Shown in pieces: positions 51,844 to 55,270 of a stretch of 64,000 nucleotides of DNA. A model generated the notes under the pieces. The model was given only the letters and a program-made list of their open reading frames with translations, was not told the origin of the DNA and did not search any database. Numbering within the stretch: position 1 is the first letter of the stretch; every line of letters starts with the position of its first letter. Location of the stretch: IMG/VR virus record IMGVR_UViG_2609459856_000007, positions 1 through 64,000 of that record. The stretch is one strand, 5' to 3'. The position numbers were made by a program, and so were the translations under genes. Origin of the DNA: a virus (Duplodnaviria > Heunggongvirae > Uroviricota > Caudoviricetes).

Positions 51844-51991
51844 TGATTCCATACATCATTTTATCATTCACTGGTGGCGTGGGCCTCGGCCTCGCAATCT
51901 GCCGCGCCCTGGTCCAGCAGGAACTGAAAACCAAAACACTTCGTGTCGGTAAGCGTGTGTATCGGGTTGTTCACGAGACGGGAGTGCGAAA

Positions 51992-52297
51992 ATGAGCAAT
52001 TTGACTTCCTTCGACTGGTGGCTGGCAACCTACCTTGTTGCGGCCGGCTTCGGATTTGCCTTTTACGTTGGTCAGTTAATCGTAAAGCTACTGCTGATCA
52101 GATTCCCCAGCCATAAACGCATAGACGACGGTCTGTGGCGTCTGGGGTCCCTGTTAGAGACGCATTACGGCGAACTCAAGGAAAACGAAACTATCACTAT
52201 TCAAGCGAAGCGTTTTACCGCCATCATCACGAGAACTCCGGAACAAAAGGGGAGCCTGATCAAAAAGATAGCAACTAAACGCATTACAGATAGATAA
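51992..52297 (+). CDS. small membrane protein (101 aa)
   Basis: N-terminal hydrophobic helix. Confidence 0.4.
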   Translation: MSNLTSFDWWLATYLVAAGFGFAFYVGQLIVKLLLIRFPSHKRIDDGLWRLGSLLETHYGELKENETITIQAKRFTAIITRTPEQKGSLIKKIATKRITDR

Positions 52298-53040
52298 GTA
52301 TTTACTTACTTATCTAATATGTATAAGATCACTTTGTTTTCGTTGAGATGCGACTGTTTGAACGTTAAATATAACTGCAAACGAAGATGCATACCTGGCA
52401 GTAGCCTAAGAAGCCAAACACCAGCGAGGTCAGTTTCCAGCCTCGTTACCAAAATGGGACACACTGAGCGAGTGTGATTGCAGAACGCAGAATAGGGCAT
52501 ATTGCACCATCCATGCCCTATTCAATGAAGTAACAGAATGGGCGGTTGGTTTCATCATTCCATTCATCCATCCCGGTTTCAGCTGACCGTCCATTCTGTT
52601 ACGTCATTTCCATTACTTATGTCGTTTATACTTGGGTTAAAAGCGGCGACGTAACCCGGCTGACTTGGTTAGTCAGCACATAACGTTGAGATCACTGATT
52701 TTTCTTAAAATCATACAGGCGATTCCACATAGCTGTAGCGACTGATCAATATGTTGGGTTGAACATTAATCGGTTCAGTGATCTCAACGTTGTGAAAGCA
52801 GGATTAATTAACCCTCTAGTGAAAACATTGTTGCCTTTATTGCCCCTGGCTTCACAACATGTATGATTCCATACATCCAATAAGATCGAAGAATCTAACG
52901 GCAATCAACCACCGAGAAAGATTCCAGATCTTCGCTCATATGAGCGAGCCACATGCCTCGTCTGGTACTAACGTAAAGTGCAAGTTGCGGGAAAGTTTCT
53001 GGCTGCCTGGTTGTCCATAAGCTAGTACCGCCGCGAAAAT

Positions 53041-53115
53041 GATGGTGTAGCTCAGTGGTAGAGCGGTTGACTGTTAATCAACTGGTCGGTGGTTCGAGTC
53101 CACCCACCATCGCCA
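53041..53115 (+). tRNA. tRNA-Asn (anticodon GTT)
   Basis: Cloverleaf folded by hand: acceptor GATGGTG/CACCATC, D-arm GCTC/GAGC, anticodon stem GTTGA/TCAAC with loop CTGTTAA, T-arm GGTGG-TTCGAGT-CCACC, discriminator G plus CCA. Confidence 0.85.
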
Positions 53116-53267
53116 ACATAGCGCTGAACGGTTTGGATTCGCCACCACCGTCCGAACGAAAGACTCCGCAAATGTCGCCAGACCGTTCAGCGCTGTGATA
53201 GACACGGCAGACGTTTTTTAACCATTGCTTCTAAGCATCGTAGCAACACTTTTTTCAGCGCAAAATC

Positions 53268-53291
53268 CAAAGGGGCTTCGGCCCCTTTTTG
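53268..53291 (+). terminator. rho-independent terminator
   Basis: AGGGGC-TTCG-GCCCCT hairpin followed by TTTTTG. Confidence 0.65.
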
Positions 53292-53311
53292 CTATCTTAT
53301 CTCTTGGTAAT

Positions 53312-54088
53312 ATGGGAAACAAACGTAAACAGGCGCGTCGCGCAGTCCGACAGGCACTGAAGTCAAAGCCACGTATCCAGGACTACGAAATTGATACAAT
53401 CATCGTTAACGAGCAGGCTGTACACCCTACTCTGCCACCCACCAAGCCTAAACGCGACAAATCCCCCATCGAAGCGCTTAACGAGGCCCAGGCTCACTAT
53501 CTTATCTCCCTAGATACCAAAGCTCTGACTTTCGCCACTGGTGAAGCAGGTTGCGGTAAGACTTACCTGGCTGCCACCGTCGCTGCGCAGCGTCTGTTGG
53601 ATAAGGAAGTCGAGAAGATCATCGTTACGCGTCCCGTATTGCAAGCAGAAGAAGATCTGGGCTTCCTTCCGGGTGACATGAGCGAGAAGTTCGCTCCGTT
53701 CTTTCGTCCCGTTTATGACGTGCTAAAGAAGCGTTTGGGTGGCTCATTCCTTGAATATTGCTTAAAGCCAGAGGTGGCCAAAGTAGAAATTGCTCCCTTC
53801 GCTTATATGCGTGGGCGCACGTTCGAGAACGCAGTAGTCATTCTTGATGAGGCGCAAAACGTTACAGCGTCACAAATGAAAATGTTCCTGACCCGTATGG
53901 ACGAGAATGTTACCGTCATTGTGAACGGTGATATTACTCAATGTGATCTGCCCGGTAACGTTAAGTCTGGTCTGGAAGATGCTCTGGCTCGTTTTAGACC
54001 TTCCGCCCATGTTGGCCTTGTTGAGTTTACGACCGAAGACTGCGTGCGATCAGAACTATGCAAAATCGCACTGGAAGCCTATCAGTAA
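53312..54088 (+). CDS. PhoH-family ATPase
   Basis: Walker A GEAGCGKT, Walker B VVILDEAQN; track ORF starts at 53225 but ATG 53312 lies after the terminator. Confidence 0.75.
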   Translation: MGNKRKQARRAVRQALKSKPRIQDYEIDTIIVNEQAVHPTLPPTKPKRDKSPIEALNEAQAHYLISLDTKALTFATGEAGCGKTYLAATVAAQRLLDKEVEKIIVTRPVLQAEEDLGFLPGDMSEKFAPFFRPVYDVLKKRLGGSFLEYCLKPEVAKVEIAPFAYMRGRTFENAVVILDEAQNVTASQMKMFLTRMDENVTVIVNGDITQCDLPGNVKSGLEDALARFRPSAHVGLVEFTTEDCVRSELCKIALEAYQ

Positions 54089-54145
54089 GAGAGTTATACA
54101 GCCTCGATATCCAGCCATTTGGTGGCTCTCCCAGATTAAACCCAA

Positions 54146-54178
54146 CAAAAAGCCCCTTACGGGGCTTATTTATTTTTG
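54146..54178. terminator. bidirectional rho-independent terminator between convergent genes
   Basis: AAAAAGCCCC-TTAC-GGGGCTT hairpin flanked by A-run and T-run. Confidence 0.65.
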
Positions 54179-54663
54179 GCTGTTACTAGAACGCGTCGTT
54201 TCTGTCTACCAAAACCTCTAGTAGTAACGACTCTGACTTTCTGAGCGACATCACTTTCATTTACAGGAACCATCTGCCCCGTACTTGCATCATAAGTAAA
54301 AAGCTGCCCATCTCGAGGCTCATTCGGTGAGATCAATGCCGCAGCTTTAACATTCATATGTGGTCTAAATGCGTACGCAACACCTGTAGCGGTTGCACTT
54401 TTGCGTCCCCGACCATCAGTAATCAAGCCAGTAAACATTCCAAATTTTCTCGGTACAATTCGGCGACGAAATTTTGGTGTAGAATTTTCAATGATTGTTT
54501 TTATGGCAGAGGTAGTAGTGCGGGCAGGCTCCGCATTTTCAGAAGAGGATGCGACTACTGTAGTTTGGCCCGCATCGATGGCTCGATTCATAGCATCGAT
54601 ACGTTCAGCCTGGCGAGCACGATATTGCTCAAGCCGTGTAGAATTTTGGCGTTCGTAAGACAT
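54166..54663 (-). CDS. hypothetical protein (165 aa)
   Basis: ORF. Confidence 0.45.
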   Translation of the reverse strand: MSYERQNSTRLEQYRARQAERIDAMNRAIDAGQTTVVASSSENAEPARTTTSAIKTIIENSTPKFRRRIVPRKFGMFTGLITDGRGRKSATATGVAYAFRPHMNVKAAALISPNEPRDGQLFTYDASTGQMVPVNESDVAQKVRVVTTRGFGRQKRRVLVTAKNK

Positions 54664-55147
54664 TCGCCTTCCCCTCTGGTTCTAGGCCTACTTCAATAGT
54701 AAACCCTCTGTGTTTCTTCATGGTTACAAATCGACAGTAAACGCCTGAAAGTTTTAGATCTGCTGGCGCAAATGTGTAAAGTGCCACGTTGAATGTATTA
54801 TAGTGGTCAATAATTATTCTTTCAACGCACTTTAGGACTCTGGTTCCAGCGCCATTTGGCAGGTTTTCCATTCTTTTAAAATGAGTCTTTTCCTTCCAGT
54901 TCTGAACAGAATCGAACACTACGTCGTAATGGTTGCCGTATTCTGGGAAAATAAAATCCAGCGGAAACTCGGCAGCACAATCATACATGTTTGCTTTGGT
55001 GATTTGCGTAAAATACACACGGTATTCAACTCCGGCTACTGCAAATGTTGCTGAATGTGAACGCGGTTCGCCGTATGGAGCAAGCTCGTCAAAGTTAGTC
55101 ATGATTAATGGGTTAATTGTCCTTTTTAAATATGATACCAGATTCAA
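54629..55147 (-). CDS. hypothetical protein (172 aa)
   Basis: ORF. Confidence 0.45.
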   Translation of the reverse strand: MNLVSYLKRTINPLIMTNFDELAPYGEPRSHSATFAVAGVEYRVYFTQITKANMYDCAAEFPLDFIFPEYGNHYDVVFDSVQNWKEKTHFKRMENLPNGAGTRVLKCVERIIIDHYNTFNVALYTFAPADLKLSGVYCRFVTMKKHRGFTIEVGLEPEGKANVLRTPKFYTA

Positions 55148-55239
55148 TTAGACCGCGTAAAAACGCCTTACATTTGCTCCCCTTATATTAGCGGTAGATT
55201 TCACGCCGACGGCTACTTTTTTTAAAAATAGCGGCCTAA

Positions 55240-55270
55240 ATGATTCCATACTTGTAAGGTATGGAATCAT
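55240..55270. repeat. inverted repeat ATGATTCCATAC-N7-GTATGGAATCAT upstream of the recombinase gene
   Basis: 12-bp perfect arms; the GATTCCATAC motif also occurs near 51845 and 52864. Confidence 0.7.

Follow-up and report, generated by a model that had tools for sequence, protein, structure and literature searches.

The 64,000-nt stretch of DNA analyzed here (positions 1 to 64,000 of the IMG/VR virus record IMGVR_UViG_2609459856_000007; hereafter, the window) represents an SSU5/pHCM2-type phage-plasmid and carries, in a gene-free stretch upstream of a tRNA-Asn gene, a structured module that resembles part of transfer-messenger RNA (tmRNA, encoded by ssrA). Comparative sequence evidence indicates that the core of this module is an unannotated RNA family, derived from tmRNA, in which only the mRNA-like half has been kept. 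An earlier note on this DNA had taken 51845-55270 as one region whose repeats could be a recombination or resolution site, an origin or a structured RNA. The features it described are real, but they probably represent two independent and unrelated things, i.e., a tmRNA-like RNA/tRNA unit and a palindrome that appears to be the site of an adjacent recombinase. The idea of a structured RNA holds for 52330-52860 and for both inverted repeats in it, although the tmRNA-like, tag-coding nature of this RNA had been missed.

The tmRNA-like core and its tag reading frame

The core is composed of the following features.

52333..52500, + strand: tmRNA-like core module, with a 5' domain, a tag frame, a stop-codon hairpin and two H-type pseudoknots, and without a tRNA-like domain
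52336..52343, + strand: 5' motif GUUUUCGU; all 99 unique sequences have the core UUUUC, and at least 90% keep the flanking G's
52377..52409, + strand: tag frame, GCA AAC GAA GAT GCA TAC CTG GCA GTA GCC TAA, i.e., ANEDAYLAVA-stop
52395..52424, + strand: stop-codon hairpin, comparable to tmRNA helix 5, with CUGG/CCAG plus an inner helix
52424..52459, + strand: pseudoknot PK2; stem 1 GCGAGG (52424-52429)/CCUCGU (52441-52446), stem 2 UUCCA (52435-52439)/UGGGA (52455-52459)
52460..52490, + strand: pseudoknot PK3; stem 1 CACACU (52460-52465)/AGUGUG (52471-52476), stem 2 CUG(A)GCG/CGCAG (52486-52490)

The tag frame has no in-frame start codon and a TGA is located 5 codons upstream; its GCA resume codon is preceded by AUAACU, which places U at -5 and A at -4. 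The sequence before the tag is AAAUAUAACU, while the E. coli tmRNA tag ANDENYALAA is preceded by AAAAAUAGUC. The features that define the mRNA-like domain of tmRNA were thus all found here, namely a resume codon without a start codon, U-5/A-4, a short tag with a hydrophobic end, and a stop codon, which lies inside a hairpin and is followed by pseudoknots.

A pattern scan of IMG/VR identified 119 loci, and A-N-(D/E)-x-x-(Y/F)-L-A-V-A-stop is encoded in 120 of the 126 copies. Across all loci, 28 nucleotide versions encode 15 peptides; the third codon position is variable in 9 of the 10 codons, as compared to 5-6 codons for positions 1 and 2. TAA, TAG and TGA are all used as stop codons, and the other two frames hold stops. 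The Vi01-like versions are synonymous throughout (GCT AAT GAT AAC ...). A second tag class, ANDDVVLMAA, which has synonymous variants of its own, was found independently of the first search pattern in a Klebsiella phage-plasmid (locus L129) and in a Pantoea genome (locus L138). As synonymous changes occur and each of the three stop codons is used, we read the frame as translated, and these patterns indicate that it is under peptide-level selection and is likely to be read by ribosomes. An alternative +1-frame open reading frame (ORF; ATG/GTG/CTG CAA ACG...) was rejected, as its peptide is not conserved and its start codon is lost in the Vi01-like variants.

Covariation in the core

A covariance model (R1), built from 57 non-SSU5 phage sequences with no SSU5-like sequence in the training set, matched 52333-52500 (+) with 81.6 bits (E = 5e-16). 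R1 also matched Y. pestis pMT1, phage Cyrano and contigs of Kluyvera and Buttiauxella, and it did not match E. coli ssrA. A second match in the window, at 26096-26210 (+), is weak (15.6 bits, E = 0.056) and probably due to chance; four of eight pattern matches in metagenome-assembled species genomes, which R1 did not confirm, were also considered to be chance matches.

Among the 57 non-SSU5 sequences, 98% of the cells in the core helices pair, compared to 33-45% in slid-partner controls, and 9 of the 22 pairs change on both sides. The outer helix of the stop-codon hairpin is changed to CUGA/UCAG, a compensatory change, in L129 and L138, both of which were found independently of the search pattern. 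For PK2, stem 1 is present in five compensatory variants and stem 2 covaries (CCGA/UCGG, CCAA/UUGG, CCAG/CUGG and CUCCA/UGGAG). For PK3, the loop GUGAUU is conserved, stem 1 is found in seven variants, and stem 2 pairs through wholly different sequences, including GCCC/GGGC, GCCCAC/GUGGGC, AUCC/GGAU and, in the Vi01-like versions, GACGGGAG/CUCCCGUC.

An Rfam covariance search, which had been proposed as a check on the region, detected tmRNA only below threshold (19.7 and 16.5 bits versus thresholds of 47 and 84), so that the core does not reach a gathering score (maximum, 19.7 bits versus 47). The best Rfam score among relatives was 32.5 bits versus 47, with the permuted-tmRNA model in a Felix O1-like phage, and this match borrows the neighbouring tRNA.

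The putative RNA/tRNA transcription unit and its 3' extension

Around the core, the following features were identified on the + strand.

52301..52329, + strand: putative sigma-70 promoter, TTTACT (52301-52306), 17-nt spacer, TAAGAT (52324-52329), conserved in SSU5-like relatives
52490..52858, + strand: structured 3' extension of SSU5-like elements, ~360 nt beyond the core
52490-52500/52513-52523, + strand: extension helix, counted below
52524-52549/52583-52608, + strand: extension helix, counted; contains the repeat first described as 11 bp
52617-52626/52645-52654, + strand: extension helix, counted
52659-52664/52672-52677, + strand: extension helix, counted
52679-52697/52776-52794, + strand: extension helix, counted; contains the repeat first described as 17 bp
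52789-52802/52845-52858, + strand: sixth extension helix; compensatory changes were read by eye only and are not in the count
52878..53040, + strand: leader with further hairpins before tRNA-Asn; a hairpin with the loop UAACGUAAA is conserved at ~52964-52982
53041..53115, + strand: tRNA-Asn (GUU), called by ARAGORN and by the Rfam tRNA model (76.2 bits), with an encoded CCA end
53268..53291, + strand: intrinsic terminator, which closes the RNA/tRNA unit and is also the left edge of a variable cargo region

Because no terminator was found between the RNA and tRNA-Asn, and terminators are located only after the tRNA, 52301-53291 appears to represent one unit consisting of promoter, structured RNA, tRNA-Asn and terminator. 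The RNA would start near 52333-52337; its conserved structure comprises ~530 nt, or ~700 nt when counted up to the tRNA. A consensus promoter scan missed the putative promoter, which matches at 8 of 12 positions only. The corresponding promoter in pJN2-26 is TTTACT-17-TATGAT, L129 has one of the same type, and at the equivalent position TTGACA-17-TATAGT/TAGATT is present in Felix O1-like and Klebsiella phages.

All repeats listed in the earlier note were found, most of them longer than stated. The "17-bp" repeat comprises 20 nt with 95% complementarity (52679-52698/52775-52794), and the "11-bp" repeat comprises 23 nt with 91% complementarity (52524-52546/52586-52608) and can be extended to 26 positions with one mismatch. 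Both are helices of the lineage-specific 3' extension. Across 37 distinct relatives, 97.2% of the cells in the first five helices (72 pairs) pair, compared to 28-51% for slid partners; 10 pairs change on both sides, many further changes turn GC into GU, and at several positions a G-U pair never varies. Since an invariant G-U pair would be a C-A mismatch on the other strand or in a cruciform, the constraint acts on a + strand transcript. The + strand folds with a z-score of -6.76 and the - strand with one of -4.24. A global RNAalifold analysis of the 700-nt alignment was uninformative, and helix-by-helix covariation was used instead. The conservation in related elements on which the earlier reading had been made to depend was thus observed, as both inverted repeats still pair in the 37 relatives and the arms of the palindrome are invariant in 20 related recombinase loci.

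These data also bear on whether the region could be a replication origin, or a cruciform or resolution structure at the DNA level, which we consider highly improbable. While its location in the replication module, its somewhat AT-rich composition and its long inverted repeats would suit an origin, it has no iterons, no multi-copy direct repeats and no turning point of the cumulative GC skew. Moreover, the helices accept G-U but not C-A and are therefore strand-specific, the invariant G-U pairs suiting a + strand transcript and not a DNA cruciform, and the 5' module is also found inside the tRNA arrays of unrelated phages. The earlier statement that about 52320-53040 has no ORFs is not strictly correct, as mechanical ORFs of 45-64 aa overlap 52306-53020; none of these is conserved, since indels of 1, 4 and 13 nt separate the relatives.

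Toward the tRNA, several Klebsiella plasmids whose blastn match covers nothing else of the gene-free stretch still conserve the block 52945-53005. In L129, the single such Klebsiella locus examined, a diverged tmRNA-like core is still present upstream. A hairpin in this block shows a compensatory stem change in the Klebsiella relatives. In pMT1 of Y. pestis Nepal516 (L130, 2536-3022), the core and the first ~518 nt of the RNA are kept and are followed directly by caf1R; the F1 capsule locus appears, from this arrangement, to have replaced the 3' part of the RNA and the tRNA.

Distribution of the core

A sensitive DNA search with 52298-53040 found SSU5-like plasmids and phages that match over most of the length, while ~110 nt (52367-52479) match more than 340 phage records of unrelated groups, mostly in unannotated DNA. 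These groups are the Felix O1-like phages, Suspvirus, the Vi01-like phages and 46-kb Klebsiella siphoviruses. Overall, the core was found in 414 enterobacterial phage records and 808 plasmids. Among 5,426 complete E. coli genomes, 246 (~4.5%) carry it, always on plasmids of ~110 kb and never listed in the annotation, and it is also found on Y. pestis pMT1 and on pHCM2-size Salmonella plasmids. The module that the window shares with Felix O1-like, Vi01-like and Klebsiella T1-like phages and with other SSU5-like plasmids is usually located beside tRNA genes; in Felix O1-like phages, it lies in the tRNA array, between tRNA-Ile and tRNA-Arg, with its own TTGACA-17-TATAGT promoter. The gene escapes standard pipelines, i.e., PGAP, Rfam and, in most cases, ARAGORN. 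Its spread over unrelated virulent phages and over plasmids of E. coli, S. Typhi and Y. pestis suggests that phages may manipulate ribosome rescue or degradation tagging.

Search for a tRNA-like domain or partner

Canonical trans-translation needs a tRNA-like domain that is attached covalently or helically. ARAGORN found no such domain (7-bp acceptor stem with G3-U70, T-arm, 3' CCA) in the window or in 120 related loci, and no T-arm or closing helix is conserved among relatives. An acceptor piece, i.e., a T-arm followed by the complement of the 5' motif, was not found within the 64 kb of the ~110-kb element that were searchable here. The phages that carry the module encode no SmpB gene.

Individual candidates for the missing part were also rejected. 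A closing helix in the window, UUUUCGU/GCGAAAA (53033-53039), is not conserved by relatives. In Klebsiella phage L005, a closing acceptor helix, GUUUUCGUG/CGCGGGAACCA, is located beside a T-arm, but its 3' element is what is left of a tRNA-Met gene, which relatives still have intact. The flanking tRNA-Asn or tRNA-Arg was rejected as the tRNA-like domain, as the flanking tRNA differs between families or is absent, and these are ordinary tRNAs. The helix-2-like long stem CAGUGCUCUUUCC/AGGUAAGAGCAUUG around the core represents repeated stems that enclose neighbouring modules, and it is absent where the promoter abuts the core.

The core could, in principle, be the coding piece of a genuine two-piece tmRNA whose acceptor piece is located elsewhere, either outside the 64-kb window or in an unrecognized tRNA-like module; we consider this quite improbable. 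In phage Moogle (L141, 88-836), ARAGORN calls a permuted tmRNA with the tag ANDNVFLAVA, which explains why the genome announcement of this phage reports an "ssrA" (PMC4319497). Apart from this remark, no description of a tmRNA-like RNA in these phages was found in the literature. The 32.5-bit match of the Rfam permuted-tmRNA model in a Felix O1-like phage also speaks for two pieces, as do unannotated T-loop modules near the core in Vi01-like and Klebsiella phages. However, three intact tRNA genes lie within the Moogle gene model, and nothing in the coding piece is complementary to its acceptor strand; the tag call is right, but the gene model is probably an artefact. In addition, the window lacks the expected acceptor piece, the apparent acceptor in the Klebsiella phage is the tRNA-Met remnant, and the neighbouring modules vary between families while the core is constant.

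The surroundings of the core in these phages have features of their own. In phage Vi01 (L004, 727-3064) and in Klebsiella siphoviruses (L005 and L010), more than 1-2 kb are gene-free and contain arrays of modules with a hairpin and a T-loop (GGUUCGAAUCC). The arrays are enclosed by family-specific repeated long stems, e.g., AGGUAAGAGCAUUG...CAGUGCUCUUUCC, and the modules, which may be tRNA-like processing signals or further RNAs, are not recognized by ARAGORN or Rfam. Two tRNA-like elements with a T-arm and an acceptor-like 3' strand, one ending in GCCA, are found in K. pneumoniae pKSB1_7G.2 (L129, 2790-2825 and 3225-3305); both are located downstream of the ANDDVVLMAA core and were not called by ARAGORN.

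Possible functions of the RNA

As tmRNA is defined as the union of a tRNA-like and an mRNA-like part, a translated-looking half that stands alone raises the question of how ribosomes enter it. As the mechanism we favour, we propose that the RNA, whose 3' end RNase P cleavage at tRNA-Asn would set, acts as an alternative template in the SmpB-dependent trans-translation of the host; the tRNA-like function would be supplied in trans, most simply by host tmRNA pairing with the conserved 5' motif. Rescued proteins would receive a phage-specified tag that ends in LAVA instead of the ALAA of the host. In a more far-reaching reading, which we consider less likely than not, the RNA, including the versions on pHCM2 (S. 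Typhi) and pMT1 (Y. pestis), would be a stand-alone tag cassette that reprogrammes host ribosome rescue by docking on tmRNA/SmpB via GUUUUCGU, or on another trans-acting tRNA-like partner. If this is true, stalled products would be tagged ...YLAVA or ...LMAA and not ...YALAA, their fate at ClpXP/SspB would be altered, and the trans-translation template would be split and virus-supplied. To our knowledge, a split template mode has not been described for any tmRNA.

The proposed docking draws on the conserved 5' motif, (A)GUUUUCGU(C), which is complementary to host ssrA 96-106, i.e., to tag codons 3-5 (E. coli ssrA 97-105 is ACGAAAACT). This complementarity comprises 10 nt in most families (P ~0.03 versus shuffles). 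Alternatively, the same complementarity could mean that the RNA is an inhibitor, by decoy or antisense action, and titrates tmRNA, SmpB, S1 or RNase R of the host, with GUUUUCGU blocking the host tag codons and the remainder mimicking the mRNA-like domain. An RNA without a tRNA-like domain would suit such a role, as would the complementarity between the loop UGAUUAA and ssrA 236-242; an RNA of mycobacteriophage DS6A that consists of the tRNA-like domain only has been proposed to titrate SmpB (PMC4131195). A decoy is nonetheless unlikely, as it needs no conserved peptide, while the tag shows synonymous drift, a retained aromatic residue, three interchangeable stops and a second coherent tag class, and the complementarity to ssrA is statistically weak.

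Several findings weigh against the proposed mechanism itself. The tRNA-like domain that canonical trans-translation requires was not found. In the window, the complementarity to ssrA comprises 8 nt only, which is at chance level (P ~0.5), and, as all hosts have one tag, covariation cannot probe this pairing. For a PK1-like fold in the 5' domain, directly before the resume codon, the candidate pairings CAGUUUU/GAAACUG and CUUUG/CAAAG show no covariation, and the SSU5-like and Felix O1-like versions lack them. As the search pattern behind the first sequence set prescribed parts of the tag and of the hairpin, these columns are invariant by ascertainment. Finally, no expression data for this RNA were found, and two small RNAs from Y. 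pestis RNA-seq, sR082 and sR083, were rejected as candidates as both map to other pMT1 loci.

A palindrome associated with a tyrosine recombinase

The second subject of the region comprises the following features.

51843..51857, + strand: single 15-mer coinciding with the start codon of a small ORF for a membrane protein (51843-51995; MIPYIILSF...; phrog_6302)
52863..52877, + strand: single 15-mer ATGATTCCATACATC, between the RNA and the tRNA leader; reads MIPYIQ-stop
53297..55236: variable cargo, with phoH (53225/53309-54088) and two unknown minus-strand ORFs; unrelated DNA takes this place in L028, L057 and L085
55238..55272: perfect palindrome, AAATGATTCCATAC-TTGTAAG-GTATGGAATCATTT, the putative recombinase core site
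55295..55342, + strand: putative recombinase promoter, TTGATC-17-TAACAC (TAATAT in relatives), with a LexA-type box, CTG-N10-CAG at 55325-55340 (CACTGTTTATAAATACAGTA), that overlaps the promoter
55371..56474, + strand: tyrosine recombinase (integrase family), PF00589 36.2 bits (cut-off 27.1), phrog_1 7.5e-46

The palindrome, originally described with 12-bp arms, is perfect and has 14-nt arms (55238-55251/55259-55272) around a 7-nt spacer. Comparison among relatives suggests that the adjacent tyrosine recombinase uses it as its core site. It is found together with a homologue of this recombinase (62-100% identical) in all 20 loci and never without one; phage SSU5 has neither. Its arms (13-14 nt) are invariant, whereas the 7-bp spacer occurs in at least 12 different forms, and its centre is located 112-117 bp upstream of the recombinase start codon, or 60 bp in a divergent clade. 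Over the 300 nt on its recombinase side, relatives are 97-100% identical, but over the 300 nt on the opposite side they share only 55-61%, as unrelated sequences do. Relative to L028, L057 and L085, which are 99% identical on both sides, homology ends at precisely 55237 and starts again at ~53296, directly behind the tRNA terminator; 53297-55236 is therefore considered to be exchangeable cargo bounded by the palindrome. A further 1.6-kb insertion is found at 53290-53309 in pJH51-3.

The recombinase and its putative site show sequence characteristics of Cre-loxP-type systems, i.e., the catalytic domain of the family and inverted arms around a short spacer (7 bp here, 6-8 bp in this type) linked to the gene. 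Inspection by eye identified the Arg, RxxR, His and Tyr motifs, and a sequence search of PDB found no relative. The LexA-type box (20-mer 55323-55342) is present at the same position in 12 of the 14 related loci examined and is absent in the clade with the 62%-identical recombinase, suggesting that the recombinase is SOS-controlled. The palindrome would recombine with copies of itself, for multimer resolution or cyclisation, as Cre-loxP does in phage P1, and it would also mark the junction for the exchange of accessory cargo. Because the arms are fixed while the spacer evolves freely, such self-recombination is most likely preferred over recombination with a chromosomal attB. An integrative attP is disfavoured, as the overlap differs in nearly every lineage and each would need a separate attB. 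An apparent inversion of the spacer between lineages (CTATTAA versus TTAATAG) was not used, since three substitutions explain it equally well.

Of the options offered in the earlier note, a recombination or resolution site would thus be the best reading of the palindrome, in view of the 20/20 co-occurrence, the variable spacer and the homology break at its edge, while the inverted repeats are RNA helices. The note had also described a motif that recurs near 51845 and 52864. Copies at 51845 and 52865 do exist, but both belong to single conserved 15-mers outside any palindrome. In the 64 kb, the exact 12-mer ATGATTCCATAC is found at four places only (51843, 52863, 55240 and 55259(-)); five more matches with 2 mismatches are at chance level (shuffle mean 5.98). 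The 15-mer at 52863 is nearly invariant across relatives that are ~74% identical overall, with variants only in SSU5, which lacks the recombinase, and one other locus; its left context varies by lineage and may be an RNA stem, an ORF (L016) or tRNA-Gln (L129). In recombinase-carrying relatives, the nucleotides of the 15-mer at 51843 are invariant even at synonymous sites, and this copy is diverged (TTGATCCCATATCTT) in L129; its left context likewise varies between lineages. A degenerate copy with 2 mismatches, TTGATTCCATAA, is located inside the recombinase gene at 55977-55988 (-), and its counterpart at the same offset in pJN2-26 has the exact 10-nt core GATTCCATAC.

The single copies raise the question of whether the ATGATTCCATAC elements could instead be operator or promoter signals, with the palindrome acting as a bivalent operator in between two divergent genes while the small-ORF operon and the tRNA are under the control of the single copies, comparable to the asymmetric C1 operators of phage P1. 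The palindrome does lie in an intergenic region flanked by divergent genes, with 23 bp separating it from the putative recombinase -35 downstream, each single copy overlaps a -10-like (T/G)ATGAT that faces the downstream unit, and every copy is oriented toward genes. This explanation is conceivable but doubtful, as palindrome and recombinase are strictly linked, including in the 62%-identical clade, as homology breaks at the arm edge between relatives that are 99-100% identical, and as GATTCCATAC is not present in 56868-57114, the control region of the putative repressor itself. Against a recombinase core site, it has to be considered that an operator for a dimeric regulator would give the same pattern of arms and spacer, that the spacers of the single 15-mers differ from that of the palindrome, so that they are not obvious recombination partners, and that, as read by eye, an Arg replaces the usual His of the HxxR motif in the recombinase. 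If the palindrome is nonetheless a recombination site, it and its enzyme would be candidates for resolving multimers and for exchanging accessory genes (defence, toxin, resistance) in SSU5-type phage-plasmids.

Genomic setting

Over 51800-56500, the window is 98.7% identical to the E. coli plasmid pJH51-3, and it shares 91% identity with Salmonella phage SSU5 over 51810-53155. Genes and other features follow in the order ligase, four small ORFs, the gene-free stretch, tRNA-Asn, phoH, two unknown minus-strand ORFs, tyrosine recombinase, XRE repressor and cobT, and the surroundings represent the replication module (helicase, primase, ligase, polymerase). One further gene belongs to the lysogeny module.

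56469..56867, - strand: XRE-family putative repressor (phrog_8, 1e-10), convergent with the recombinase gene

Homologues of this gene are labelled XRE or putative repressor in the annotation of pJH51-3 and phage Cyrano. Between it and a 70-aa ORF (57115-57327, phrog_2627), the divergent region 56868-57114 is very AT-rich (~28-34% GC) and probably acts as the immunity switch. A sub-threshold Rfam match to Ysr251, a Yersinia antisense small RNA, was detected at 53890-54085 (-), opposite the 3' end of phoH (54.2 bits versus a gathering score of 100).

Comparison with known systems

Like the bacterial one-piece tmRNA (ssrA; RF00023), the RNA described here has a GCA resume codon after an A/U-rich tract with U-5/A-4, a 10-codon tag that starts with AND or ANE (compare the enterobacterial ANDENYALAA) and has a small hydrophobic end, a stop codon in a hairpin, and H-type pseudoknots after the tag. 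Unlike one-piece tmRNA, it has no acceptor stem, T-arm, CCA or helix 2 and only two verified pseudoknots; its tag ends in LAVA (or LMAA), and it is borne by phages and phage-plasmids, with its own promoter beside tRNA genes. Two-piece (circularly permuted) tmRNAs are found in alpha-proteobacteria, some beta-proteobacteria and cyanobacteria (Rfam tmRNA_permuted). As in these, the tag-coding RNA is separate from the 3' half of the tRNA-like domain; however, the coding piece of a true two-piece tmRNA begins with a 5' acceptor strand that is held to the acceptor piece, and here neither an acceptor piece nor a complementary strand was found.

Among phages, a survey of RefSeq viruses and plasmids for tmRNA genes listed these in mycobacteriophages and in Bacillus phage G alone (Hudson et al. 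2014, PMC4131195); the phage groups that carry the present module are all missing from its list. The tmRNAs of the mycobacteriophage Bxz1 group and of Bacillus phage G are likewise ssrA-derived genes in phages, but theirs are complete. DS6A (PMC4131195) is a phage that keeps a partial tmRNA, namely the tRNA-like half alone, whereas here the opposite half is found, i.e., the mRNA-like domain with pseudoknots. The RNA is also similar to GOLLD and ROOL in being a phage RNA of several hundred nt, rich in covariation and located next to tRNAs; unlike these, it carries a tmRNA-type coding module and has no Rfam match to either.

For the palindrome, Cre-loxP of P1 (and also ResD-rfsF of F and XerCD-dif/cer) provides the closest parallel, with a recombinase gene beside two 13-14-bp inverted arms and a 7-8-bp asymmetric spacer and, for Cre-loxP, an extrachromosomal prophage whose site need only match itself. 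Unlike Cre or Xer, the enzyme here is a lambda-type integrase (phrog_1), apparently LexA-controlled, and its putative site coincides with a junction of cargo exchange. The integron IntI-attI system under LexA similarly places a tyrosine recombinase with an SOS box beside its primary site at the edge of a variable accessory region, but it differs in having attC-type cassette sites, a recombinase of the IntI type and promoterless cassettes as cargo. Taking these likenesses and differences into account, the palindrome and its recombinase may represent a new example among simple-site tyrosine recombinases.

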